Of a stretch of 32,000 nucleotides of DNA, positions 3,056 through 31,966 are shown piece after piece (the first letter of the stretch is position 1; every line of letters starts with the position of its first letter). The position numbers and the translations under genes are program-made. The notes beneath the pieces are model-generated. The model had not been told where the DNA came from. It saw only the letters and a program-made list of their open reading frames with translations, and searched no databases. Source of the DNA: Alkanindiges sp. WGS2144 (GTDB lineage: Bacteria > Pseudomonadota > Gammaproteobacteria > Pseudomonadales > Moraxellaceae). The stretch is taken from assembly GCF_043950625.1 (NCBI RefSeq), contig NZ_CP171007.1, one strand, 5' to 3'.

Positions 3056-3658
3056 TTAACTCGCAGCAGTGAGTAGGTACTCGGTGGTATCTGGCCGCTG
3101 CCTGTTTTTTAGAATCGCACTGTCATGTGGTTCATAGCGCAGCTTGCCCTGCTCTACCTGTCTAAAACTCCACACCTCATGATTGGGTAAAATCAGCATA
3201 ATGGTTTGTCCATTACCAGCGACTGTCCATATGGCTGTTTCCTTGTCCAGCATGGAATGAACCTTGCCCTGCTGCACCCGGGTACGAACGGCCGAACCAT
3301 CCGGCAATAATGTTAAGGTAACATCGACATTTTGCTGCTCACAGGGCGCTGCATGAGTAATGCAAGGCACCTGGCCAGTATAACGCCCGGCAAACTGTTT
3401 AATCAGCTGTGGTGAAAGTTGTATAGGTGTTACTTCCGCTGGCTGCTCGGCCAGCAGGTTCTGACTCTTTAAATCGCGCACTGCTGAGGCAGCTTCGCTG
3501 ACCGACAGTGCTGTAGCATCTACGCTTGAACGCAGGATTTCTTCCTGCTTGTCGTGATGCTGGGGACGCAAATCCAAGCTGTTACTACAGCCAGCAATCG
3601 ATACGGCCAAACCAGTCAGGCAGCCGCTCAACATTAACTTTAAATTATGTTTTATCAT
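3056..3658 (-). CDS. Lipoprotein with an NlpE-N-terminal-like (CutF-like) domain
   Basis: A signal peptide with lipobox IAGC is present (MIKHNLKLMLSGCLTGLAVSIAGC). The segment YTGQVPCITHAAPCEQQNVDVTLTLLPDGS parallels the E. coli NlpE segment WRGVLPCADCEGIETSLFLEKDGT, but with CX6C spacing. The coding call is solid. The family assignment is moderate. Confidence 0.6.
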   Translation of the reverse strand: MIKHNLKLMLSGCLTGLAVSIAGCSNSLDLRPQHHDKQEEILRSSVDATALSVSEAASAVRDLKSQNLLAEQPAEVTPIQLSPQLIKQFAGRYTGQVPCITHAAPCEQQNVDVTLTLLPDGSAVRTRVQQGKVHSMLDKETAIWTVAGNGQTIMLILPNHEVWSFRQVEQGKLRYEPHDSAILKNRQRPDTTEYLLTAAS

Positions 3659-4051
3659 CTATCTCTATCGCCTCTATAGTGCATAGGAGGAAGGCGTTCG
3701 TTATACAGGCCGGATAATTTGATCGTAAATGTGACCTTCATCACCTTCTATAGTAGGCATCATAAAGGTATATAATCTTCAAAATGAGCAGGGTTTAGTG
3801 CATCTCTTGTGTGTTTTTTTTGCGTTAATTAAGTAATAAGAGGGTTTAGCAACATGGAGCTTACCCATTTAACAATAGTTGCTACTTTTGCGCCAAATGT
3901 AAACAGATGTGACACAATTTCTCGGCTTTAAAAGGTATAACCCGTCCCCATAATATTAATAGGAATTTAAATGGTCATGTGTTTCTATAGGCTTTCACGT
4001 TTGTTATTAATCATTTATTTACCATGCTAATGCTGAGGAGGCAACGCAACT

Positions 4052-4291
4052 ATGGCAAATATTGGCTTATACCGCTCACGTCGTCGTCATCTGATCGCAG
4101 GCGTTATGGGTGGTATCGCTGAACGTTACGGCTGGAATCCCACTTTGCTCCGCTTTATTTTTATTATTGTTTCAATTTCAAGTGCTGCATTTCCAGGTAT
4201 TCTGGTTTATCTCATATTATGGCTGGTTATGCCTAAAGCGCCCTTACCCATTGAGCGCTCCGAGCCTTCTAGCTTACGCACAGTAAATTAA
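4052..4291 (+). CDS. Small PspC-domain membrane protein
   Basis: LYRSRRRHLIAGVMGGIAERYGWNPTLLRFIFII is followed by a hydrophobic helix, which is the typical PspC N-terminal domain. An RBS (gaggagg) precedes the ATG. Confidence 0.8.
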   Translation: MANIGLYRSRRRHLIAGVMGGIAERYGWNPTLLRFIFIIVSISSAAFPGILVYLILWLVMPKAPLPIERSEPSSLRTVN

Positions 4292-4333
4292 CCTCATTAT
4301 AAGAGTCATTGACCTGACCAAATAAAACCTTTG

Positions 4334-4359
4334 GCCTACTATCTCTTTTTTTAGTAGGC
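4334..4359. terminator. Weak hairpin between convergent pspC-domain gene and exbD (possible terminator)
   Basis: The stem is 8 bp, gcctacta (4334-4341) pairing with tagtaggc (4352-4359), with a T-rich 10-nt loop. There is no clean U-tract on either strand, hence the low confidence. Confidence 0.3.
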
Positions 4360-4390
4360 TATTGATTTATATAGATGCTAATGTGCCTGT

Positions 4391-4798
4391 TTAGGGCGCT
4401 TCACTGATAAAAGCCAGATCACTTAGGCCAGCTTTACTGGCCCGGGCCATTACTTGAGCGACGGTGTCATAGCGTGCTTCTTTATCTGCACGAATTTGTA
4501 CCGTGGGCTTTTTATCCTGCTGTGCGGCTACCGACATACGGCTGGCCAGCTCTGCTAAACTCACCGTGTCCTGATTCCAGCTCACCTGCCCCCTGGCATC
4601 TATGGAAATGGTCACTACCTCAGGTGGCTGTGGTGAAACAGCAGTATCCGTTTTGGGCAGGGTTAACGGAATGCTGGGGTTAATGATAGTGGCAGTGACC
4701 AGAAAAATAATCATCAGCACCAGCATAATATCAATCAGGGGAATGAGATTCATCTCATTCATGCCCTGTTCCTGCTCTTCTCCCAGATTAAAAGCCAT
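4391..4798 (-). CDS. exbD: Biopolymer transport protein ExbD/TolR family
   Basis: MNLIPLIDIMLVLMIIFLV is the single TM signature, and the periplasmic domain contains ADKEARYDTVAQVM. The start is trimmed to ATG 4798 (MAFNL...), 1 nt after the exbB stop. Confidence 0.85.
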   Translation of the reverse strand: MAFNLGEEQEQGMNEMNLIPLIDIMLVLMIIFLVTATIINPSIPLTLPKTDTAVSPQPPEVVTISIDARGQVSWNQDTVSLAELASRMSVAAQQDKKPTVQIRADKEARYDTVAQVMARASKAGLSDLAFISEAP

Positions 4799-4799
4799 C

Positions 4800-5426
4800 T
4801 TACACCTGTCCTCCAACCAGCGAGCTAGCCGGTGCCTTATGCTGCTCCGAATTATCGGTAGTCGTCACTCCGGGTAGCAGGTTTTCAATCAGCACAGTAT
4901 GCGCCCGGTCGTGCAGGCTATGGCTAAATACACGGTTCATGCGGGTACATATGTTGTAGGCAAGTACGGCAGGGATAGCAACGGCCAGACCAAAACCGGT
5001 CATGATCAGCGCCTCGCCTACGGGTGCCGCCACTTGTGCCAGCCCTGCCTGCCCAGTACTACCTATGGCTACCAGGGCATGAAAAATGCCCCATACTGTA
5101 CCAAATAGACCGACGAACGGTGCAATAGAGGCAATGGTTCCCAGTACTGCCAGCCCGCGCTCAGTACTTACACGGGCACGCGCCATTTGCTGTAGTAGCG
5201 CCTGCTCAGCCACCATTTTGCGTTGCTCCAGGCTTAAATGCTTAAACCGGCTTTTTAGTTGCTCAACCGACTGGTTCAATGCCTGTAGTGCACCGGCTTG
5301 AGCCTGACGGGTAGCCATTATACGTAATATAAAAATACACCAGGTAGCAACCGACATGGCCAGCAGGATGAAATACAAGGTTTTACTAATGGCGTCTGCA
5401 TGTTGCCAGTACATGGAAAAATTCAT
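4800..5426 (-). CDS. exbB: MotA/TolQ/ExbB proton-channel protein
   Basis: Motifs seen: IAPFVGLFGTVWGI and GEALIMTGFGLAVAIPAVLAYN. The start is trimmed to ATG 5426 (MNFSMYW...), which has a GAGGAG RBS upstream. The longer track ORF would overlap the tonB 3' end. Confidence 0.85.
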   Translation of the reverse strand: MNFSMYWQHADAISKTLYFILLAMSVATWCIFILRIMATRQAQAGALQALNQSVEQLKSRFKHLSLEQRKMVAEQALLQQMARARVSTERGLAVLGTIASIAPFVGLFGTVWGIFHALVAIGSTGQAGLAQVAAPVGEALIMTGFGLAVAIPAVLAYNICTRMNRVFSHSLHDRAHTVLIENLLPGVTTTDNSEQHKAPASSLVGGQV

Positions 5427-5442
5427 GAAGCCTTGCTCCTCA

Positions 5443-6261
5443 TTATCTGGATAATTGAAATACGAAAGGTTGAACAGTGTAAGCAGGCACAGCCACGCCA
5501 TTGATCCGGTGAGGACTAAATTTGGCTCTTTTCAATGCCCGCACCACTTTTTGGTCAAGTGGCCCCAATCCTGATGAGTTAATCACCTGTACCTCATCCA
5601 CCCGACCAGCAGGGCTAATGAATATTTTCAGCATGACTGTGCGCGGTTGGCCCTTTAAATCACGATCAGTTACTTCAAGGCGTGGTGGTTTTATATAAGA
5701 CACGCCCTCAATCTGCACGGGTTCAGTCGGTGGTTGAGGTTCAGACCTGGGTTCTGCCTTAGGGGTAGGGGTTGGGGATAACGGCACAGGCTCAGCTCGC
5801 GTTTGCTTGACGACAGTCACTGTTTCAGGTTCAGGCTGCAAAGGTGCTACCGCTTGAGGGCGCAAAGAGGGTGTAGGAGTTGCTAATACTGGTTTGGGCT
5901 TGGGCAACGGTTTAGGCTTAGGTGGCTCTTTTATAATGTTAACTTCTTTGGGTTTAGGTTGAAGTTTAGGTGGCTCTGGCCTGAGTGTGGGTTTAGGTTC
6001 TGGCGGTGCAATATGCACAAAACGTACTGCTATGGGCTTGGGCGCTGGCGGCACCTGATATTGAAGCGGTGCAATATGCACAAAACGTACTGCTATGGGC
6101 TTGGGCGCTGGCGGCACCTGATATTGAACAGGCTTTAAGATCGCCAAAGCAACCATCACTGCCGCATGGGCAAATAATACCAGCACCATAATACCGAGTA
6201 CACGACGATAAGGCGCTGGAGGTTTTATCTGAGACGTTTCGGCCTGAACCGTTGCAGTCAT
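5443..6261 (-). CDS. tonB: Energy transducer TonB
   Basis: An N-terminal TM anchor is followed by a long Pro/Lys/Glu-rich spacer (PKPKPLPKPKP, PEPKP). The C-terminal TonB domain contains VMLKIFISPAGRVDEVQVINSSGLGPLDQKVVRALKRAKFSP. It is the first gene of a tonB-exbB-exbD operon. Confidence 0.85.
   Translation of the reverse strand: MTATVQAETSQIKPPAPYRRVLGIMVLVLFAHAAVMVALAILKPVQYQVPPAPKPIAVRFVHIAPLQYQVPPAPKPIAVRFVHIAPPEPKPTLRPEPPKLQPKPKEVNIIKEPPKPKPLPKPKPVLATPTPSLRPQAVAPLQPEPETVTVVKQTRAEPVPLSPTPTPKAEPRSEPQPPTEPVQIEGVSYIKPPRLEVTDRDLKGQPRTVMLKIFISPAGRVDEVQVINSSGLGPLDQKVVRALKRAKFSPHRINGVAVPAYTVQPFVFQLSR
6003..6128. repeat. Perfect 2 x 63-bp tandem direct repeat inside tonB
   Basis: By direct comparison, 6003-6065 and 6066-6128 are identical at 63 of 63 positions. 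The repeat is in frame and duplicates the 21-aa unit (V/L)QYQVPPAPKPIAVRFVHIAP. Confidence 0.95.
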
Positions 6262-6620
6262 GAATCGTTACTCATTGATTAAGACGCTTTAAAAAAGTAC
6301 ATGCGCTGTCTACAGTCTCATCCATTAAACCGGAAAACCTATCACTCACCGGAACCTATACAACGCCAGGCCTACCTGCCCCTCATGCACGGTTTAACAT
6401 ATAAAGTATGCCTATAATAAATGAGAAGTGTTTTCATTTGCAATAATTTTATTGAAAGATTTATTATATGTAACCCGTCATCAGGGTATTACTGCTTTGT
6501 TTTATTACCCAAGCTTAGCAATCCTTGAGACTGGTCGAAAAAATTTGGCAAATAGGCCAGTGACTTATCACAAAAATTCGCGCATGTTTAGTTGTAATAA
6601 GTGAGCTGGTTATTTTTCTT

Positions 6621-7235
6621 ATGTTTCCTATGCTTCCCCCGCACGTGCCTCAGCGCGGCACCTCGCTCAGTCGTTCTTTCTGGCGCAAGGCATTTTTATC
6701 CCATGGCTGGCAAATCAAGGGCGAAATCCCCAATATTCCCAAGGCGCTACTCATCGGTGCGCCCCACACCTCCAATATGGATGGGTGGTATGCATTTATG
6801 GGGATTATGGGACTTGGACTGGATATTACGATTATGGCCAAGGATAGCCTGTTTAAGCCGCCTTTTCAGGCGCTACTTAAATGGCTAAATGTCATGCCAG
6901 TCAACCGCAGCTCAGCAACCGGACTGGTGGAGCAGGTCAAGGCACGTTTTGAGCAACAATCAGCCGTGTGGATTGGGATTGCTCCAGAAGGAACTCGAGC
7001 CGGAGCCAAGCAATGGAAAAGCGGCTTTTATCATATGGCTTTAAGTGCTCAGGTACCTATCGTCATGATTGGACTGGATTATGCCAAAAAACAGATTATA
7101 TTTTTGGGGACGTTTTATCCCAGTGGGAATTACAACAGCGACCTGCAAAAAATCCTGGCACATTATCAGGGCTTGACTCCCTACCATCAGAACAAATTAT
7201 CGCATCCGTTACGCAGCAAATCTTCTAGCAAATAG
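6621..7235 (+). CDS. PlsC-family (1-acyl-sn-glycerol-3-phosphate type) acyltransferase
   Basis: The HX4D motif is present in APHTSNMD, and the second acyltransferase block is IAPEGTR. The length is about 200 aa. Confidence 0.8.
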   Translation: MFPMLPPHVPQRGTSLSRSFWRKAFLSHGWQIKGEIPNIPKALLIGAPHTSNMDGWYAFMGIMGLGLDITIMAKDSLFKPPFQALLKWLNVMPVNRSSATGLVEQVKARFEQQSAVWIGIAPEGTRAGAKQWKSGFYHMALSAQVPIVMIGLDYAKKQIIFLGTFYPSGNYNSDLQKILAHYQGLTPYHQNKLSHPLRSKSSSK

Positions 7236-18266: not shown

Positions 18267-18492
18267 TTTTCTGATTTACCCCATGGTTCTGGCTAACGCA
18301 TTAAATACAAAAATCCAGTGCTGTAAGTATATGCCAGTCAGGTTTAATTACTGACCCCTCATGTTTGTAAGCTTAGTTTAGTCTTGTATAACCAATAAGT
18401 TAAACTTAATTGATTTTTTGTATTTTATTGCTTTGTTTATAACAAAAAAGTAAAATTACTTTGTAATATGAATACAAAATGGATACATTTTC
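18267..18492. promoter_or_regulatory. AT-rich divergent promoter region between mazG and the four-gene envelope operon
   Basis: This 226-nt non-coding stretch is visibly AT-rich and lies between divergent starts. It contains a perfect 6-3-6 palindrome, tttgtt-tat-aacaaa (18432-18446), and repeated TTGTA/TACAA motifs. No -10/-35 assignment was attempted. Confidence 0.4.
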
Positions 18493-19881
18493 ATGTTTTT
18501 TACCAAAAATAAATTGGCTTTAGCCGTTGTGATAAATGTGAGTGTTTGGGGTTTAGGGGGAGTTCAATCTGCACAAGCGGGGTTGTTTAGCGATTATGCC
18601 ACTGATGCCCAGGCTTTTCGTTCTTCCTTAATTCAACCGAGCTCAGATACGCTTTTTTTAACCTTGGAAAAAAAGCAAAAATCTAAAGATGCAATCTTGT
18701 TTTTACTGGAAAAAGCTCGCTTGCAGCAGTCTCACCAGCAATATGAAGACAGCAAACAATCATTTGAAGCCGCATTTGCTCTACTGGATGAGAAGCAAAA
18801 TCAGGCAAAGATCAGCGCTTCAGCGATTGGTTATAAAGCCTTATCGCTGGTAAGTAATGACAGCGTGGTACCTTACAATATACCAGGTTATGAACAGGTG
18901 CTGGCACATGTTTCCCAGGCCATTAATTTTCTGGCCTTGAACAATCCTGAAGGTGCAGCCGTTGAGATGCGTATTGCCCAGCGCATCCAGCGTGAAATTG
19001 AGCTGGATCATAGTAAAGAGGCGGAAAAAGCCGAGAAAGCAGCAAAAAAAGATAGCAAAACGCCCCCTGAAGATGAGGAAAATGATGACAAGTACGAAGA
19101 AGCCTTTGCGGGTCTAAGTACCATTGCAGGTAAGGTTAAAAACACTTATCAGAATGCTTATGCGTTTTATATGGCGGCTACCTTATGGGAGGCCCTGGGC
19201 GAACATAACGATGCGCTGGTTGACTATAAAAAGGCCTATGAGTTACAGCCTGATAATTATATTAAGCAGGATGTGACGCGGCTGGATGCTGGCCATAAGC
19301 AGGCTGGTGCTAGCTATCCGGTAGTGGTATTTCTGGAGCAGGGTCTAATTCCGCAAAAAGTGCCAGCCAGTTTTGCTTTTCCTACCACTGATGGCCTGAT
19401 CAATATTTCTTATGCCAGCTATGATCCGGCCAGCTATATCACTCCCGTGCCTGCTACCATTCTGGTCGATGGTCGCCAGATCACCACCACCAATCCGCTG
19501 TCTGATATTGGTGCCCTGGCCGTCAAAACCCTTAAAGAAGCCGTCATAGGCAATATGGCTACCCAGATTGCCCGTTCAACGGCTAAATACGCGGTACAAA
19601 AGGAAATGGGCAACCGCCTTGGTATTTTTGGTCAGCTGGCCGGCAACCTATACAACACTGCCACCGAAAAAGCAGATACCCGCGCCTGGAACACGTTACC
19701 AGGTAATGCCCAGGTTGCCCGCTTTTTATTACCAGCCGGAAACCACACTTTAGAGCTGGTCAATGGTGCAGTGCGTAAAAGTATCGATATTGAAGTTAGC
19801 CCTAACCACACCACATTTGTGCATGGTATTGAAGCCAATGAGCAAATGGCGGCCAGTAGCTTTAAGGTAGGCCAGCAATAA
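18493..19881 (+). CDS. Exported protein of unknown function: TPR-like helical N-half, charged insert, beta-rich C-half (COG3014-like by recollection)
   Basis: A signal peptide ends SAQA/G. The TPR-like segment is NAYAFYMAATLWEALGEHNDALVDYKKAYELQPDN and the Lys/Glu/Asp-rich insert is EAEKAEKAAKKDSKTPPEDEENDDKYEE. It is the first gene of a tightly spaced four-gene set. Confidence 0.6.
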   Translation: MFFTKNKLALAVVINVSVWGLGGVQSAQAGLFSDYATDAQAFRSSLIQPSSDTLFLTLEKKQKSKDAILFLLEKARLQQSHQQYEDSKQSFEAAFALLDEKQNQAKISASAIGYKALSLVSNDSVVPYNIPGYEQVLAHVSQAINFLALNNPEGAAVEMRIAQRIQREIELDHSKEAEKAEKAAKKDSKTPPEDEENDDKYEEAFAGLSTIAGKVKNTYQNAYAFYMAATLWEALGEHNDALVDYKKAYELQPDNYIKQDVTRLDAGHKQAGASYPVVVFLEQGLIPQKVPASFAFPTTDGLINISYASYDPASYITPVPATILVDGRQITTTNPLSDIGALAVKTLKEAVIGNMATQIARSTAKYAVQKEMGNRLGIFGQLAGNLYNTATEKADTRAWNTLPGNAQVARFLLPAGNHTLELVNGAVRKSIDIEVSPNHTTFVHGIEANEQMAASSFKVGQQ

Positions 19882-19925
19882 GTCTGGTTTCAAAAATTTT
19901 AATAGTTAAATCACTGAGGAAGATT

Positions 19926-20330
19926 ATGAAAACAACACATTTCATGGCTGCATTAACCTTAATAGCAGCTAGCCTGACCGGATGCACCGCGCCCAATGCC
20001 ATGCTGACCACTACTGATAGTGAGGGGAACAGTAGTGTACGGACGATTACCAACAATGCGGTGTTATCCACCCGTATTGGCGTCAACCGCGTGAACATGA
20101 CTAATCTGGGCGATATTAAGCGCGTATCCCTATCCCTGAAAAATGGCTGGTACTATGCGCAGGCTTTTGAGTACAAGATTGTCTGGATGGACGCTTCAGG
20201 TACAGAAATCAATCCTGAAGGTGCAACCTGGAAGCCTGTTTCTCTACAGGGTCGTGAGGCCAAAACAGTACAGTCTGTAGCGCCTAACCCGAGTGCTGTT
20301 GACATCGTGGTTTATCTAAAAAAAGTTTAA
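19926..20330 (+). CDS. ycfL: YcfL-type (DUF1425) lipoprotein
   Basis: Lipobox LTGC is present. FEYKIVWMDASGTEINPEGATWKPVSLQGREAKTVQSVAPNPSAVDIVVYL parallels the E. coli YcfL segment YRFYWYDARGLEM...VTIPAHSSVTL...A...RLYL. A GAGGAA RBS is present. Confidence 0.7.
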   Translation: MKTTHFMAALTLIAASLTGCTAPNAMLTTTDSEGNSSVRTITNNAVLSTRIGVNRVNMTNLGDIKRVSLSLKNGWYYAQAFEYKIVWMDASGTEINPEGATWKPVSLQGREAKTVQSVAPNPSAVDIVVYLKKV

Positions 20331-20365
20331 TACACCCTTTTAATTGTTGATCAGGAAATGAATCT

Positions 20366-20971
20366 ATGAAAATTAAAGCATTGCAGGCTGGCGTTTTACT
20401 GGCAGCGGCGGCTGCATTAGGTGGTTGTGCCTCAACTGGCGGCGTTGCCTACGGAGATGCACAAGCCGTTGAAACCCTGACTCAGGATTTTGGTTCAACC
20501 GACCTGCAAATGATCGCCAGTAAAATGGTGGACGATATGCTGGCTTTCCCGCCTATTATCCAGATGACCCAGAATCGCCGTCCGGTGATGTTCGTTGACC
20601 GCATCAAAAACAAGTCACAGGAACACATCGACACCGAATCCATTACCGATACCATTCAAAATAAGCTGATCAACTCTGGCAAGTTCCGTTTTGTAGATAT
20701 GTCCTCTGTAGGTGCCGTGGCTGACCAGCTGGCCTATCAACAGCAAAGTGGCATGGTCGACAAGCGTACCGCGGTACCAACCGGCGCCCAGATTGGTGCA
20801 GAGTACATGTTAAACGGCAACCTCTCCAGCATTGTTAAAAATGCAGGGGGCAAAAGCGATGTATATTATAAATTCACCCTGAAACTGCTTAACCTGAAAA
20901 CCGGTATTGTTGAATGGACTGGTGAAAAAGAAATTCGTAAATCTGCTAAAAAGGCAGTATTTGGCCGTTAA
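20366..20971 (+). CDS. lpoB: LpoB-type (COG3417) outer-membrane lipoprotein
   Basis: Lipobox LGGC is present. DLQMIASKMVDDML...PVMFVDRIKNKSQEHIDTESITDTIQNKLINSGKFRFV...IGAEYMLNGNL...LKLLNLKTGIVEW parallels the E. coli LpoB C-terminal domain. Functional equivalence (PBP1B activation) is not established here. Confidence 0.65.
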   Translation: MKIKALQAGVLLAAAAALGGCASTGGVAYGDAQAVETLTQDFGSTDLQMIASKMVDDMLAFPPIIQMTQNRRPVMFVDRIKNKSQEHIDTESITDTIQNKLINSGKFRFVDMSSVGAVADQLAYQQQSGMVDKRTAVPTGAQIGAEYMLNGNLSSIVKNAGGKSDVYYKFTLKLLNLKTGIVEWTGEKEIRKSAKKAVFGR

Positions 20972-20991
20972 TTTGTAGTTGCCAATAAAAT

Positions 20992-21026
20992 GCTACTGCG
21001 TGGATTGACTTCAAGCACGCAGTAGC
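20992..21026 (+). other. Intercistronic stem-loop between the lpoB-like gene and the fourth operon gene
   Basis: A perfect 11-bp stem, gctactgcgtg (20992-21002) pairing with cacgcagtagc (21016-21026), has a 13-nt loop and no downstream U-tract. It sits 20 nt after the upstream stop and 19 nt before the next ATG. Confidence 0.6.
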
Positions 21027-21045
21027 CATAAACAAGAGACAAATA

Positions 21046-22038
21046 ATGAAGAAGATAGTTTGTGGTGTCCTGCTGGCTTTGGCTGCCTTCCCGGCACTGG
21101 CTACGATTCAGGAAGTGATGCAGGAAGCAACTGGTTCCGGGTCTACCCGGCAGCAGGCCATTGCTGAGGCTCTGCTTACCGCAGCTCAGTCCGTTAATGG
21201 AACAGTGGTTAGTCCCGGCATGGACATGGCAGAACAGGTTTCCATGGTGGTGACCAACAATGGCTGGAACTACCAGAGCAAAAGCTCGCCGGTTTTTAGT
21301 GTTAATACCCAGACCAACGGGACGATTAGCCGTTTTCAGGTACTCAGCGTTTCAGGCTCTGGCAAGAGCTATACGGCTAGAGTACGAGCCTATATTCCAA
21401 AATACCAGTCCAGCGTAGCGGATAGTCATTTACGCCGGATGGCTGTTATGCCGTTTCAGGTCATGAGTGCTAAATTTGATCTGGCCAATGGCGATGATGC
21501 GGATGATTTTGTCACCGAACTGGCTGACTTAATTGGGACACAGCTCACCAACTCCAGGCAATTAAGCCTGCTAAGCCGTGACTACATTGGCGAAATGGCC
21601 TATGAAAATGCCTTTTTACAGTGGGATGGTTCACCGGCTGAAATGGCACGTATCGGGCAAAAAGTGGGGGCAGATTATATTCTGGTAGGCCGGATTAGCG
21701 AAGCACGCACCGTTCAGGGTCGCTCTTTCTATGGCGCCATTCCTGCTGAGCGCGAATCTATCCGCTTAAACTGGCGCGTGATTGAGGTCAATACTGGCAA
21801 AATTGCCGCAGCGGGTACGGTAAACCAGTTACAGCGCCAGCAAATGGCCTCGCTGATTCATGATGATAGCCCAGCCACTGTGGCAGAGCTGGTGGCTGAC
21901 CAGGTCAGCAATGAGGTACTGAGCGGCTTATCCCTACAGGTAAGAAGTACCGCACCAGTTGTCAGCAATGCTCCCCTACCTCCACTGTCAGATGCTGATC
22001 TAACCCCGGGTTCCAGCGAAAAACCTGTACAATGGTAA
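21046..22038 (+). CDS. Exported two-domain protein: LPP20/FlgT-N-like N-domain plus CsgG/LpoB/TolB-N-like domain
   Basis: The signal peptide MKKIVCGVLLALAAFPALA/T is signal peptidase I type with no lipobox. The N-domain contains EATGSGSTRQQAIAEALLTAAQSVNGTVVS. The second domain contains RRMAVMPFQV...LADLIGTQLTNSRQLSLLSRD...IGQKVGADYILVGRISEA...IRLNWRVIEVNTGKIAAAG. The Pro-rich tail ends in W. The fold assignment comes from motif recognition only. Confidence 0.6.
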   Translation: MKKIVCGVLLALAAFPALATIQEVMQEATGSGSTRQQAIAEALLTAAQSVNGTVVSPGMDMAEQVSMVVTNNGWNYQSKSSPVFSVNTQTNGTISRFQVLSVSGSGKSYTARVRAYIPKYQSSVADSHLRRMAVMPFQVMSAKFDLANGDDADDFVTELADLIGTQLTNSRQLSLLSRDYIGEMAYENAFLQWDGSPAEMARIGQKVGADYILVGRISEARTVQGRSFYGAIPAERESIRLNWRVIEVNTGKIAAAGTVNQLQRQQMASLIHDDSPATVAELVADQVSNEVLSGLSLQVRSTAPVVSNAPLPPLSDADLTPGSSEKPVQW

Positions 22039-22057
22039 AAGTGTGAGTTGAAACACC

Positions 22058-22088
22058 AAAAAGCAGCCCTCTTTAAAGGCTGCTTTTT
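22058..22088. terminator. Bidirectional rho-independent terminator (envelope operon / relA)
   Basis: The stem aaaaagcagcc (22058-22068) pairs with ggctgcttttt (22078-22088) around a 9-nt loop. An A-run lies upstream and a T-run downstream, so it can work on both strands. It lies between convergent genes. Confidence 0.75.
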
Positions 22089-22208
22089 TAATTCCGGTTA
22101 AGTTTTTCTCTTGCAAGAACAATACATTACTTGTCGCAGGTGAATATCATCCAGTAGGTGGATAAGCCTAAATTTGTCCACAACCCTGCCTGAATGACCT
22201 ATTTATAC

Positions 22209-26141: not shown

Positions 26142-26951
26142 TCAAACAATGGGAACATTAAATGGGGTCAGGCGTGCATTCTTCTGCCATTGTGCCAAAA
26201 AATCATGCTGACCGGGCACCTGCTCCCTTAAATAATCATGGGTGAGTTGCAGCCATTGTGCGTGTGCCTCATCCGTTAAATGGCCGCGCAGCAATTGCCA
26301 GCGCAGATAGATCAGCCAGGTATTCAGCACATCACTTTCACAATACTGGCATAACTCCTGCCACTGCTGGTTTTTGACATAATCATACACATGATAGCCA
26401 CTTTGCCCCTGCTTACCCGGAAAACCAAGTAGCAGCGCCAGCTCATCGAGTCTTTGAAAATTACGGGCATTAAACTGCGCCAAGCAGTCCATCAAATCAA
26501 TGTGGCAATGATGGTAACGGTTCTGGTAGTTATTATACTTGCGGCTTTGTTCAAACTCACCCTGATCAAACAGGTTTTGCGCGGTTAAACCATATAGCAT
26601 GGCTCTTAACGTAATCACCGGAATATCAAAACCCTTGCCATTCCAGCTGACCAGGCAGGGGAAATGCTGATCCAGACTATTTAAAAAACGGCTGATAATC
26701 TGCTTTTCGCTCAATTCACTTTTGCAAAATGAAAACAGCTTCATGCTGGTCTGGCTTACCCACAAGCCTGAAATACAGACCACCTCATGCAGCGGCAAAC
26801 GTGGAAAATCACTGCCGCATTCCTGGCGACGAATGGCATTCATGGCCAGCACCACGTCCTCATCCGGCAAATCCAGGCCATACAAACGTGCACCTGCCTT
26901 AATGTCAGGAATGGTTTCAATATCAAATACCAATACCGGCAGGTTGAGCAT
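26142..26951 (-). CDS. Stand-alone 3'-5' exonuclease related to the PolB exonuclease domain (DEDDy)
   Basis: Exo I is VFDIETIPD, Exo II is SWNGKGFDIPV and Exo III is YCESDVLNT. No polymerase domain is present (269 aa). Confidence 0.75.
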   Translation of the reverse strand: MLNLPVLVFDIETIPDIKAGARLYGLDLPDEDVVLAMNAIRRQECGSDFPRLPLHEVVCISGLWVSQTSMKLFSFCKSELSEKQIISRFLNSLDQHFPCLVSWNGKGFDIPVITLRAMLYGLTAQNLFDQGEFEQSRKYNNYQNRYHHCHIDLMDCLAQFNARNFQRLDELALLLGFPGKQGQSGYHVYDYVKNQQWQELCQYCESDVLNTWLIYLRWQLLRGHLTDEAHAQWLQLTHDYLREQVPGQHDFLAQWQKNARLTPFNVPIV

Positions 26952-28940: not shown

Positions 28941-29086
28941 ACTGCATCACCTGCCCAAAAGTGCATTTATTGTAAAGAAAAAGCCTGCCTGCTGCACGAT
29001 GTTCTGTTGATTTCTAGTTGTCAGGGTGATGGGCTTTGGCGGGATTTCCTTTTATACTCGGGTCAGGTTCTTACTCTAGCACGCTT

Positions 29087-31966
29087 ATGCCTGTCCATTA
29101 TTCCCGCTGGTATCATCGTTTACGCATCACCAATGCCTATGGGCAACTGATTGCACTGATTTTTTTACCTATTATGATTTTGTCATGTGTGGGCGCCAGT
29201 CTGGTATTAATGGAAACGGCACGTTCATCGCGTGCTGAGCAACGTAGCGCGGCCTTTGCCATACTGGCACGTTATCAGCCAACCGCAAAACGGCTGAGTG
29301 TACTGCTGGATCAACCCTCACAACAGGAAAAAGTCCGTTCCATTTTGCAAACCATGCTCAATGAGTCAGATTTGCTCCGGGTAGCCATCATTGATAGCGA
29401 AAGCCGTCCACGCATTTCCTTTGGTTATGGCAGCAATGCAGGCTGGCCAGTGTTTGAAGCGCACCGTGAAACCTTTGGCCCCCTACACTCCAATATTGGC
29501 ACGACCTACGGCCTGCGTGCAGGCTATACCAGCGATGGCCCGGTCTGGCTGATTGTGGATATGGATAATCAGCCGCTACAGCTGGCACGCTACCGGGTCT
29601 GGCTGGTACTGGCAGTGACTGGCTTGCTTACCCTGATGTTGTTGCTGCTGTGCCTGAACTTTTATTCACGACGCTGGATTTCTCCCATTTACGAAATTCG
29701 CCTGCAACTACAGCGCCTGGGAGCCGATACGCTGGGGCAGCAGATTAAAGTCAGTGGTACTGGTGAATTGCGCTTGTTGCAGCTGGATCTGGTCGGACTG
29801 CTACAGCGCCTGCATGAAAGCTTTGAGGAACTCCAGCAGCATACTGAACAAACTGAAGATGATTTGCGTAAAACACTCGATGCGCTGGAAATTCAAAATA
29901 TCACCTATCGCAAGGCACGCGATCAGGCCATTGGCGCCAATCAGGCCAAGTCGGTGTTTTTGGCCAACATCAGCCATGAACTACGCACCCCGCTCAATAG
30001 TATTGATGGTTTTGTCAACTTAATGGCACGTAAAGGCAGCCTCAGCGACCAGCAGCTTATTTATATTCAAACCATTCAAAAATCATCAGCACATCTACTG
30101 GCGCTGGTTAATGACGTGCTGGATTTTTCCAAGATTGATGCCGGCAAACTGGTACTCGAGCAGGCACCTTTTGATCTGGAACAAGCCGTATTTGATGTCA
30201 TCGACATGCTCTCCCCGCTCGCCTGTGAAAAGCGCATTGATATGGCGGTGTATTACTACGAAGACATGCCCAGACAGGTCAATGGTGATGCACTACGCTT
30301 TAAGCAGATTTTGACCAACCTGGTGAGTAATGCGATTAAATTTACCCCGGATGGCGACATTATTGTACGGGCACGCCTGGAAGACAGTAGTGATCAGCAT
30401 TATTTAATTCATGTATCGGTACAGGATAGCGGCATCGGTCTAACAGGTGCTGACCGCAAGCTGCTGTTTGAGTCTTTTTCCCAGGGTGACCCATCCGTAA
30501 CCCGCCAATACGGTGGCACGGGGCTGGGGCTGGCCATTTCGCGCCAGCTGGTGCATTTAATGCAGGGTAAAATTGGCTTTGAGGATAATCAGGAGCGCCA
30601 TCCTACGGACAAGGGCGCCACATTCTGGTTTACCGTGCAGCTGGGTAAAGTCATGGATGAGCAAGACCTGACGGACTGGCCAGACTTAAGTGGCTGGCAG
30701 GTTCTTTCCAGTATTCAGCATCCAGCCAGCGCCAATGTGCTGCGGGGCTATTTAAGCCAGGTTCAGGTTAAACAGCAGGAAGCCCAGTCCCTGCCAGACC
30801 TGTTTGGTCGCCTGAGCAATTTTGAAAAGGAGCGCCATACGCATAGCTGGGTCATTGTAGACAATGGCGGAGATACCGAAGCATTGCTGCGCGAAATCCG
30901 TACTCGCTATCACGGCGCACTGGCGGTGTATGGCTACCAGATGGCACTGGATCCCGATAGCCTGAAACGCTACGATGCCGTGGCTCTATATGAACCCATG
31001 AGCCGCTCTGCCCTGATTGCCATGTTACAGCATGAACAGGTGTATCACAGCCCGCAACCGGAGTTTTCCGGGCATGGGCTGCATGTACTGGCAGTGGATG
31101 ACCACCGGCCTAACCTGATGGTGCTGGAAGCATTGCTCAATGATTTGGGAGTTGAAGTCACCAGCGCCAATAGTGGTCTGGAAGCCCTTGAACTGATTAA
31201 TATACGACACGAAACCCAGCAGCCTGCTTTTGATCTGGTGTTTATGGATATTCAAATGCCACGGATGTCCGGCATTGAAGCCACCCAGGCCATTCGCCTG
31301 CTGGAAAAAGAATGGGGCAGTCATCATCAGTCATTACCTATTGTGGCCTTGAGTGCCCATGTGTTAAGCGATGAAAAGGACAACTTGCTGGCTGCTGGCA
31401 TGAACGATTATGTCAGCAAACCCATTCAGATCAATCAGTTGATCAGGATCTTGAACCAGTGGTCCAGCCTGCCAGCTCCCGTTGAACCATCGGCTGAAGC
31501 ACCTCAACAAAGCGCCAGTACCTTTTATCCGGATGACTTTTCACCAGAAGAGTTTTATCAACCTGCCCGGGAAAACATGCAGTATGACACCCAGCCACAT
31601 ATTCTGGACTGGCCAGAAAGCCTGAGGTTATCAGCCGGTAAAGCCGAACTGGCGCAGGAGTTGCTACAGATGCTGGTTTTCAGTTTTAATGACGAAAAAC
31701 AGCATTTAAAACAGCTCATTGCACAACAGGACTATCAGGAGCTTGAGCAGCGAATTCATCGGATGTATGGCGCCACCCGTTATATTGGATTGCCCAGCCT
31801 GCAAACCATCTCCCGCGCTTTTGAAAAAATGCTTATGGAGCAGCGCAAGTCTGGCCAGCCAGCCGGTAGCAATTTTATGGAAGATATTGATATGTACTAT
31901 CAACAGCTGATTGTCGCCATGAATGAACTGGAAACCGAAGCACAAAAGGTACTTAAATCACGTTAA
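29087..31966 (+). CDS. gacS: Hybrid sensor histidine kinase / response regulator of the GacS/BarA type (TM-periplasmic-TM, HAMP, HisKA, HATPase, REC, HPt)
   Basis: Seen: H-box ISHELRTPLNS, N/G boxes LVSNAIKFTP, DSGIGL and GGTGLGLAIS, receiver DLVFMDIQMPRMSG...KP, and C-terminal HPt HRMYGATRYIGL. The start is uncertain (ATG 29087 versus TTG 29036), and neither has an obvious RBS. Confidence 0.85.
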   Translation: MPVHYSRWYHRLRITNAYGQLIALIFLPIMILSCVGASLVLMETARSSRAEQRSAAFAILARYQPTAKRLSVLLDQPSQQEKVRSILQTMLNESDLLRVAIIDSESRPRISFGYGSNAGWPVFEAHRETFGPLHSNIGTTYGLRAGYTSDGPVWLIVDMDNQPLQLARYRVWLVLAVTGLLTLMLLLLCLNFYSRRWISPIYEIRLQLQRLGADTLGQQIKVSGTGELRLLQLDLVGLLQRLHESFEELQQHTEQTEDDLRKTLDALEIQNITYRKARDQAIGANQAKSVFLANISHELRTPLNSIDGFVNLMARKGSLSDQQLIYIQTIQKSSAHLLALVNDVLDFSKIDAGKLVLEQAPFDLEQAVFDVIDMLSPLACEKRIDMAVYYYEDMPRQVNGDALRFKQILTNLVSNAIKFTPDGDIIVRARLEDSSDQHYLIHVSVQDSGIGLTGADRKLLFESFSQGDPSVTRQYGGTGLGLAISRQLVHLMQGKIGFEDNQERHPTDKGATFWFTVQLGKVMDEQDLTDWPDLSGWQVLSSIQHPASANVLRGYLSQVQVKQQEAQSLPDLFGRLSNFEKERHTHSWVIVDNGGDTEALLREIRTRYHGALAVYGYQMALDPDSLKRYDAVALYEPMSRSALIAMLQHEQVYHSPQPEFSGHGLHVLAVDDHRPNLMVLEALLNDLGVEVTSANSGLEALELINIRHETQQPAFDLVFMDIQMPRMSGIEATQAIRLLEKEWGSHHQSLPIVALSAHVLSDEKDNLLAAGMNDYVSKPIQINQLIRILNQWSSLPAPVEPSAEAPQQSASTFYPDDFSPEEFYQPARENMQYDTQPHILDWPESLRLSAGKAELAQELLQMLVFSFNDEKQHLKQLIAQQDYQELEQRIHRMYGATRYIGLPSLQTISRAFEKMLMEQRKSGQPAGSNFMEDIDMYYQQLIVAMNELETEAQKVLKSR

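Follow-up and report, generated by a model that had tools for sequence, protein, structure and literature searches.

A conserved four-gene module of exported proteins in Alkanindiges that may form an outer-membrane-tethered periplasmic assembly

We analysed a 32,000-nucleotide (nt) stretch of DNA from Alkanindiges sp. WGS2144 (Moraxellaceae; NCBI RefSeq assembly GCF_043950625.1, contig NZ_CP171007.1), referred to here as the window, and in particular four neighbouring open reading frames (ORF1 to ORF4) that encode only exported or lipid-anchored proteins. Judged from comparative sequence analysis, the four genes constitute a real, autonomous and vertically conserved module with a deep core, a COG3014 protein and an LpoB-type lipoprotein, which is usually joined by a YcfL protein and often by a FlgT-like fourth member. 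The products might assemble into an outer-membrane-tethered periplasmic hetero-oligomer or scaffold for envelope and peptidoglycan homeostasis, in which ORF3 would not serve as a canonical activator of the penicillin-binding protein (PBP) PBP1b; we hold this reading as a whole tentatively, at somewhat less than an even chance. Taken by itself, the conclusion that ORF3 is not a canonical PBP1b activator, despite its annotation, is probably correct. The members of the module (lengths in amino acids, aa) and the conserved end of ORF4 are the following.

18493-19881, plus strand: ORF1, 462 aa, COG3014-family periplasmic protein
19926-20330, plus strand: ORF2, 134 aa, YcfL/DUF1425 small lipoprotein
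20366-20971, plus strand: ORF3, 201 aa, LpoB-family (COG3417) lipoprotein with lipobox LGGC and a short conserved tether
21046-22038, plus strand: ORF4, 330 aa, soluble FlgT-like / CsgG-HfaB-family periplasmic protein
22003-22035, plus strand: conserved C-terminal tail of ORF4 (TPGSSEKPVQW-COOH), terminal Trp invariant

As an earlier note on this DNA had described, the four ORFs are co-directional, and their coordinates give spacers of 44 nt (ORF1-ORF2), 35 nt (ORF2-ORF3) and 74 nt (ORF3-ORF4). A rule-based reading of the translations likewise bears out the claim that every product begins with an export signal, of the signal peptidase I (SPase I) type in ORF1 (SAQA/G) and ORF4 (ALA/T) and a lipobox in ORF2 (LTGC) and ORF3 (LGGC).

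Conservation of the four genes

Species-representative genomes were scanned with a narrow ORF1 alignment (A3), and at least 578 of them encode a COG3014 relative. Loci were compared for the best 80 of these at least 578 genomes, and co-occurrence was counted on 79. The clades covered are Acinetobacter, Oleiphilaceae, Alcanivoracaceae, Spongiibacteraceae, Ectothiorhodospiraceae-like metagenome-assembled genomes (MAGs), Desulfuromonadales/Geobacter, Brocadia/Planctomycetota, Omnitrophota and one alphaproteobacterium. Because an iterative hidden Markov model of the ORF4 N domain picked up the LpoB-like domain that ORF3-type and ORF4-type proteins share, these two gene types were sorted on three features: length, a motif within the sequence and a Trp at the C-terminus.

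All four gene types lie together at 61 of the 79 loci, in nine clades, and at every one of the Acinetobacter loci (20/20); many of the loci without the full set are contig ends. The order of the genes is permuted, the ORF4 type leading the set in Brocadia and Ectothiorhodospiraceae and taking second place in Geobacter, yet the set is still together. The flanking genes are unrelated between clades, and the mazG...relA context of the window recurs in only five Acinetobacter loci. In an all-against-all clustering of the locus neighbourhoods, only these four families were common to more than four clades, the other apparent families being antisense shadow ORFs. No enzyme, ATPase or regulator is co-conserved in this clustering, in keeping with the earlier description of the set itself as free of such genes. 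Since the four families stay together in nine clades despite permuted order and unrelated flanks, a functional coupling between them is to be expected.

The five Acinetobacter loci with mazG...relA flanks belong to A. modestus, an Acinetobacter MAG, A. geminorum, A. calcoaceticus and A. seifertii (L001 to L005). There, the gap between mazG and the COG3014 gene measures about 1.0-1.3 kb (about 5580-6950), compared with 226 nt here, and may hold a small gene or a regulatory region.

The recurrence of a COG3014/YcfL/COG3417 neighbourhood in proteobacteria, which the earlier note had put forward, proved to be real and extends past Proteobacteria to Planctomycetota-, Omnitrophota- and Bacteroidota-like contigs. 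Homologs of ORF1 reach down to 21-26% identity, and an LpoB-family gene still adjoins the COG3014 homologs at that level. When the search was started in reverse, from distant ORF4 homologs, independent database gene calls again gave modules encoding a tetratricopeptide repeat (TPR) protein, a DUF1425 protein, an LpoB and a CsgG/LpoB protein. In Alcanivoracaceae, the stop of the COG3014 gene overlaps the start of the YcfL gene by 4 nt, which suggests that the two are translationally coupled in that family.

An extra gene encoding an LpoB-like domain plus PEGA is found in Geobacteraceae/Pelobacteraceae loci and in one very distant metagenomic locus (L075:8381-9514, L078:8543-9721, L081:8662-9861), and looks like an optional fifth component; at L081, a 282-aa CsgG-like gene also lies upstream of the COG3014 gene. 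In a gammaproteobacterial MAG (L023:10419-11762), a beta-lactamase-family (PF00144) gene stands directly 3' of the ORF4-type gene on the same strand and is conserved nowhere else.

The four products and the LpoB label on ORF3

ORF1 shows full-length homology to COG3014 proteins and adjoins DUF1425 and LpoB-family genes, and a protein 100% identical to it carries the NCBI name 'COG3014 family protein'. Its AlphaFold 2 (AF2) model (predicted local distance difference test score, pLDDT, 85; predicted template modelling score, pTM, 0.83) runs from a TPR-like helical half (aa ~35-265) through beta strands and a long helical hairpin (339-391) to a beta-sandwich (405-460); the beta-rich half, hairpin included, spans aa 274-460. 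The model thus agrees with the earlier description of ORF1 as a helical-repeat plus beta-rich protein. Pfam gave only sub-threshold TPR matches in ORF1 and 32 family members, the C-terminal ~200 aa were matched by no Pfam family, and there is no Pfam or NCBIfam model of the COG3014 family. A Foldseek search of the ORF1 model against the PDB returned no match at E <= 1e-3, only generic TPR proteins (NlpI and PilF among the weak matches), and left the C-terminal half unmatched; a PDB sequence search found no solved relative. The strongest motif of the COG3014 family, SExADxRSWxTLP (aa 391-403), lies inside this fold-unmatched half. Unlike most of its homologs outside Moraxellaceae, which carry a lipobox (..GCA..), ORF1 has a plain SPase-I-type signal and no lipobox.

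The NCBI version of ORF1 is 464 aa long, two codons longer than the ATG-initiated ORF, so that translation would have to begin at a non-canonical codon, ATT at 18487. ORF1 is preceded by a weaker Shine-Dalgarno sequence than ORF2 and ORF3. A phage-defence role for the family was considered and dropped, as its sole pointer was too indirect: a preprint in which a COG3014-domain gene is a statistical predictor of phage-host pairing in Vibrio.

ORF2 matches Pfam DUF1425 (PF07233) at 4e-23, with 81.5 bits against a gathering score of 28.3, and its lipobox reads SLTG-C20. A profile of ORF2 orthologs matched 3o0l in the PDB at 9e-19 and, weakly but over the full domain (97 residues), 4gio (E = 1.3e-3). 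The latter is C. jejuni Cj0090 (PMC7857515).

By sequence model ORF3 is an LpoB, whereas judged on the defining traits of the E. coli activator it mostly is not. It matches Pfam LpoB (PF13036) at 2.4e-53 and scores 210.9 bits with TIGR02722 (cut-off 110.55); together with the DUF1425 match of its neighbour, this upholds the earlier reading of ORF2 and ORF3 as YcfL-type and LpoB-type. In a profile search of the PDB, ORF3 matched only LpoB, with E-values of 7e-9 to 6e-10 for the E. coli and Salmonella structures and ~25% identity to E. coli LpoB.

In E. coli LpoB, the globular domain is carried on a long disordered linker, rich in proline and extending up to 145 Å, which allows this domain to reach PBP1b through the wall (PMC4632607). 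ORF3 is without such a linker: only 24 residues, none of them proline, separate Cys21 from the start of the Pfam domain (aa 46). The segment from residue 29 to 45 is kept across phyla, from Alkanindiges to Geobacter and Brocadia, so that conservation begins ~8 aa past the lipidated Cys. The lipobox region reads AAALGG-C21-AST; Asp at +2 is absent, which by E. coli rules points to sorting to the outer membrane. At the interface, the residues of LpoB that contact PBP1b (at UB2H) are S157, A164, Y178, S180 and E201, and mutation of E201 abolishes PBP1b binding (PMC12279963). These positions align in HMMER to G129, A136, N150, N152 and I181 of ORF3, so that one of five is kept, with a mapping that is uncertain at ~25% identity. 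Most of the orthologs outside Moraxellaceae have Tyr at position 150.

ORF3 is the most conserved member of the module. Its orthologs from other phyla are 52-79% identical and have 60 invariant columns; outside Moraxellaceae, the median identity is 55-69% for ORF3 compared with 24-40% for ORF1, ORF2 and ORF4, making it about twice as conserved as its three partners. This pattern suggests that ORF3 would be the constrained core of the assembly.

In Acinetobacter, the activator seems to lie elsewhere. The A. baylyi gene that behaves as PBP1b activator adjoins mrcB (ACIAD2235/2234; PMC6586353), and A. baumannii has been described with an lpoP paralog (PMC8630537). A class A PBP gene adjoins the module at none of the loci examined. 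With the linker absent, the similarity remote and the Acinetobacter activator reported at mrcB or as an LpoP paralog, the link to PBP1B that the earlier note had drawn through LpoB is doubtful. ORF3-type proteins pass the NCBI LpoB 'equivalog' model and are consequently labelled PBP activators across many phyla; the short tether, the apparently diverged contacts, the separate Acinetobacter activator and the four-gene context suggest that this label is often wrong.

ORF4 begins with an SPase-I-type signal (..ALA/T), followed by an N domain (aa 20-121), a middle domain of LpoB/TolB-N/FlgT_M type (aa 130-295) and a disordered linker. The middle domain is matched both by Pfam CsgG (PF03783; 29.6 bits against a gathering score of 20.8, over model positions 10-156 of 210 only) and by Pfam LpoB (26.7 bits, gathering score 22.3), and CsgG is matched in all 28 ORF4 family members (28/28). 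The AF2 model is of moderate confidence (pLDDT 67) and consists of two domains and a disordered tail, with no membrane hairpins. Its top Foldseek match is Vibrio FlgT (3w1e; E = 2.2e-13, 312 columns across both domains), with a template modelling score of ~0.39 because the orientation of the domains differs. The second is a chain of the LPHT-ring (8z5n_0, E = 1.4e-11), and GNA1162, CsgG, CT253, PelC, PelBC and HpaA are further structural neighbours. The Pfam and Foldseek matches corroborate the proposal that ORF4 carries a second LpoB/CsgG/TolB-N-type fold, and FlgT as best structural match agrees with the idea of a CsgG/FlgT-like envelope structure. At the sequence level, FlgT_M scores 15.8 bits on ORF4 against a gathering score of 31.2 and is matched in 21 of the 28 family members (best E = 2e-8), FlgT_N is matched in none (0/28), and no FlgT Pfam model reaches its gathering score, the FlgT_M and FlgT_C matches within the family being sub-threshold. 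A PDB sequence search with the single ORF4 sequence found no solved relative. The LPP20 label that had been given to the N domain was rejected for want of Pfam support: LPP20 (PF02169) matches neither ORF4 at E <= 1 nor any of the 28 family members at E <= 0.01.

An exhaustive profile search with ORF4 collected 5022 representative clusters at E <= 1e-3, of which 563 were matched at E <= 1e-30. Most of the top matches are 400-450 aa long and have an extra C-terminal domain with, at times, a faint FlgT_C match; the 330-aa Moraxellaceae protein is therefore a shortened form without this domain. The family is soluble and not lipidated, with a possible lipobox in only 6 of 147 representatives. The terminal Trp of ORF4 (W330) is invariant and the tail (PGSSEKPxxW) nearly so across alignment A2, which includes homologs at 22-28% identity, and a Trp stands within the last 4 residues in 98 of the 147 representatives.

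In a Desulfobacteraceae MAG (L085:3176-11948), a 430-aa ORF4-family protein is encoded in another co-directional cluster, whose other products are three Pfam-less proteins, one DUF6844 protein and one protein of 649 aa that Flg_new_2 matches faintly. This gene has no COG3014, DUF1425 or LpoB neighbours, so that the ORF4 family has a place in at least one further envelope gene set.

A possible periplasmic assembly and its rivals

The module type has been glimpsed before, in C. jejuni cj0089-cj0091, in H. pylori HP0018 and in the COG names. No description of the four-gene form with a FlgT-like, Trp-tailed member was found in the searchable literature, and literature searches on COG3014, DUF1425, COG3417 and Acinetobacter transposon-sequencing phenotypes returned almost nothing. 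The cj0089, cj0090 and cj0091 genes encode lipoproteins of 453, 122 and 207 aa and are co-transcribed; Cj0091 is outer-membrane-associated, and a mutant in cj0091 adheres to INT 407 cells less well and is slower to colonise chicks (Oakland et al. 2011, PMC3100323). These genes have the order and sizes of ORF1 to ORF3 (a TPR protein, a small lipoprotein and a COG3417-type protein, compared with 462, 134 and 201 aa), and Cj0090 is the 4GIO protein matched by the YcfL profile of the module. The C. jejuni set differs in comprising three genes with no ORF4-type gene described, in encoding lipoproteins throughout, whereas ORF1 has no lipobox, and in being regulated by CmeR. HP0018 supplies the only phenotypes for its type of protein: this envelope protein contains TPRs, has been reported to be homologous to Cj0089 and is syntenic with an LpoB-like gene in enterohepatic Helicobacter. 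Its deletion leads to chains of outer-membrane vesicles, altered shape and less helical cells, and the protein forms foci and co-immunoprecipitates with AmiA and MltD (Rosinke et al. 2024, PMC11394524). It differs from ORF1 in being a stand-alone gene in H. pylori, in having only 27% identity to Cj0089, and in its host, a flagellated, sheathed epsilonproteobacterium.

Better characterised systems resemble individual parts of the module. In E. coli, a DUF1425 lipoprotein gene also lies directly upstream of an LpoB-family gene, and the globular fold family (PF13036) is the same; E. coli LpoB differs from ORF3 in its long proline-rich linker and defined UB2H contacts, in place of a short conserved tether. 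NlpI and LpoA, outer-membrane lipoproteins that contain TPRs, act as scaffolds for peptidoglycan enzymes or regulate them. ORF1 is like them in offering a periplasmic TPR platform, and the reported partners of HP0018 are peptidoglycan hydrolases; the similarity is generic to TPR proteins, however, and ORF1 adds a ~200-aa unmatched C-terminal domain and has no lipid anchor. CsgG, PelC and GNA1162 have the alpha/beta fold common to ORF3 and the ORF4 middle domain and oligomerise beneath or within the outer membrane. CsgG and HfaB are lipid-anchored, whereas ORF4 is not lipidated, matches part of the CsgG model and shows no membrane hairpins in its own model; no curli (csgE/F) or Pel genes are found nearby.

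The closest parallel for ORF4 comes from the flagellum. Acinetobacter and its relatives are not known to be flagellated, and both the window and the conserved neighbourhoods are free of flagellar genes. The H-ring of Vibrio consists of rings that soluble FlgT builds beneath the outer membrane together with two lipoproteins, FlgP and FlgO, and flexible C-terminal loops dock the subunits (bioRxiv 10.64898/2025.12.02.691832). Like this ring, the module combines a soluble protein, in which an N domain is followed by a middle domain of TolB-N/LpoB-like type, with small lipoproteins of the outer membrane that have related folds. The partners differ, being FlgP, MotX and MotY there and COG3014 and YcfL proteins here, and the C domain of FlgT scaffolds the T-ring, whereas ORF4 is without a C domain and ends in a disordered tail.

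In the assembly that we tentatively propose, ORF2 (an immunoglobulin-like YcfL protein) and ORF3 (LpoB fold, very short tether) would sit on the inner face of the outer membrane, and soluble ORF4 would pack against these lipoproteins as FlgT does on FlgP and FlgO in the Vibrio H-ring. ORF1 would provide a partner-binding TPR platform, for which the ORF4 tail and peptidoglycan-remodelling enzymes are candidate ligands; the Trp tail of ORF4 may dock into a partner, the TPR groove of ORF1 being the obvious candidate. The function could be to couple the outer membrane to the wall, or to position or restrain peptidoglycan hydrolases at discrete sites. The module is present throughout Acinetobacter, a priority pathogen genus, and the phenotypes seen with related proteins, namely hypervesiculation, changes in shape and weaker adherence, point towards envelope integrity, which bears on antibiotic permeability and vesicle biology.

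A bolder form of this proposal, in which the four proteins form a non-flagellar, H-ring-like envelope ring or lattice, found even in bacteria without motility, and represent the stock of flagellar FlgT/FlgO-type ring proteins and of enterobacterial LpoB, we consider improbable. If it were true, enterobacterial LpoB would have remained next to ycfL while losing its other partners, and would have acquired its long linker before diverging, and most proteins called LpoB outside Enterobacterales would have another core function. Through a FlgT-like protein with no flagellar surroundings, the question of how LpoB and the accessories of the flagellar outer ring arose becomes testable.

Several observations weigh against the scaffold and against setting ORF3 apart from LpoB. 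The NCBIfam LpoB model TIGR02722, an 'equivalog' model, scores ORF3 far over its cut-off; residues D106, N110 and R111, which we take to belong to the interface region of LpoB, are conserved or similar in ORF3; and V. cholerae has a functional LpoB that is genetically tied to PBP1B. The link to FlgT is modest, given the pLDDT of 67 for the ORF4 model and a family profile that by sequence reaches only CsgG (E = 0.017). ORF4 is also a looser partner than ORF1 to ORF3. About seven loci with enough flanking DNA have no ORF4-type gene, the family is found in other gene contexts as well, and a stable hairpin in the ORF3-ORF4 spacer, described below, hints at partly separate expression of ORF4. ORF1, finally, is likened to Cj0089 and HP0018 by published descriptions and gene architecture, and Cj0089 itself fractionated with the inner membrane, its deletion having no adherence or colonisation phenotype (PMC3100323).

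That ORF3 is after all a genuine LpoB which activates the class A synthase PBP1b, with ORF1, ORF2 and ORF4 as accessory factors, is unlikely in our judgement. The TIGR02722 and Pfam LpoB (2e-53) matches and the genetic tie in V. cholerae speak for it, as do the neighbouring ycfL (RS16630) and lpoB (RS16625) genes of K. pneumoniae (PMC13436387) and the peptidoglycan-related role that the authors of the HP0018 study suggest via the LpoB homolog HP1457 (PMC11394524). This reading has to accommodate a proline-free tether of 24 aa in place of a linker of up to 145 Å (PMC4632607), the retention of one in five PBP1b-contact positions (a soft mapping at ~25% identity), with Ile in place of E201, and the overall ~25% identity to E. 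coli LpoB. It would also have to explain why the Acinetobacter activator is reported beside mrcB or as an LpoP paralog and why a PBP gene adjoins no examined locus. Moreover, ORF3 identity stays at 55-69% in Planctomycetota and Desulfuromonadales, a uniform constraint that is hard to fit to a lineage-specific regulator. An export or assembly apparatus of the CsgG/PelC type, in which a ring of LpoB/CsgG folds and a TPR protein would carry a fibre subunit or a polymer through the outer membrane, seems distinctly improbable. ORF4 and 28/28 family members do pass the Pfam CsgG gathering score, CsgG, PelC, PelBC and GNA1162 are structural neighbours, TPR proteins accompany such secretins and porins, and PilF is among the weak fold matches of ORF1. 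Against this, ORF4 and its family are not lipoproteins, the match covers model positions 10-156 of 210 only, and the ORF4 model has no membrane hairpins. Neither a synthase, a substrate, csgE/csgF nor pel genes are co-conserved, and the module is without an outer-membrane beta-barrel component.

Two further readings leave out the scaffold altogether. ORF3 could act as an adhesin on the cell surface, the role reported for Cj0091, with the operon as a colonisation factor; the reduced INT 407 cell adherence and slower chick colonisation of the cj0091 mutant favour this (PMC3100323). The C. jejuni work came without a demonstration that Cj0091 is surface-exposed (PMC3100323), however, and a damaged envelope could account indirectly for the poorer adherence. 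The module is moreover highly conserved in free-living Alcanivorax, Geobacter, Brocadia and Oleiphilaceae, whereas adhesins usually diverge fast, and we regard an adhesin as very improbable. Least probable of all, in our view, is that the four genes are mere neighbours encoding independent envelope proteins with no shared function. Transcripts may be divided at the ORF3-ORF4 hairpin, members of the ORF4 family are found in other places too and some loci are without an ORF2-type or ORF4-type gene, but retention in nine clades despite permuted order and unrelated flanks is difficult to reconcile with chance proximity.

Transcription signals and other features of the window

The signals around and within the module are listed below, with the corresponding spacer hairpins of related loci.

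18267-18492, plus strand: AT-rich upstream intergenic region, common to the module and the divergent mazG; presumed promoter region
20992-21026, plus strand: stable RNA hairpin between ORF3 and ORF4, with an 11-bp stem and without a U-run
22058-22091, both strands: bidirectional intrinsic terminator closing the module, common to the convergent relA
L001:9421-9493, L003:9371-9440, L012:9343-9398, L014:9410-9474, L015:9444-9502, L027:9467-9537: spacer hairpins in relatives

The two outer signals match the AT-rich upstream region and strong terminator that the earlier note had pointed out. The 226 nt upstream of ORF1 have a GC content of 28.3%, compared with 48.3% for the whole window, which places them in the lowest 0.25% of 226-nt windows and makes them the segment of this length richest in AT; a simple promoter scan found no sigma-70 consensus site in this region (18267-18492). 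On the plus strand, the terminator consists of a GCAGCC/GGCUGC hairpin (22058-22088) followed by a U-run, with a folding energy of -18.2 kcal/mol (z = -3.8; 0/200 shuffles as stable). It went undetected in a simple consensus scan because its loop is 9 nt long. The same sequence on the minus strand also folds with a U-run (-22.3 kcal/mol, z = -5.4). With a fold and a U-run on both strands, the element could therefore serve relA too, and it probably ends the convergent relA transcript.

The hairpin between ORF3 and ORF4 is strong (-22.2 kcal/mol, z = -3.9; 0/200 shuffles as stable). The same ORF3-ORF4-type spacer holds hairpins of unrelated sequence in the six relatives listed, which are several Acinetobacter and one Oleiphilaceae MAG. 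A U-run follows the hairpin in the Oleiphilaceae MAG (L027) and, less clearly, in L001. Because the position of the hairpin is kept and its sequence is not, a partial terminator or 3' stabiliser is suggested. As a partial terminator or a stabiliser of the mRNA 3' end, it may set a lower ratio of ORF4 to ORF1-3, and given its strength the apparent single operon may in fact comprise two transcript populations.

Both flanks are housekeeping in character. On the mazG side lie panC, panB, folK, pcnB, a gene for a ComEA-like helix-hairpin-helix protein and mazG; on the relA side, relA, an rlmD-type methyltransferase gene, an exonuclease gene and tehB. An Rfam scan of the window found no known RNA elements, and window scans found no tRNAs and no meaningful repeats.

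Elsewhere in the window, a second envelope cluster occupies 3056-6261 on the minus strand, with genes for TonB (5443-6261), ExbB (4800-5501) and ExbD (4391-4816) and, at 3056-3658, for a 200-aa predicted lipoprotein without a Pfam match. A 79-aa PspC-domain protein is encoded at 4052-4291 on the plus strand, and the GC content of the region 3500-4500 is low, at 0.40-0.43. Beside tehB, a stand-alone PolB-type 3'-5' exonuclease-domain protein (DNA_pol_B_exo2) is encoded at 26142-26951, and a 976-aa hybrid histidine kinase (HisKA-HATPase-REC-Hpt) at 29036-31966.

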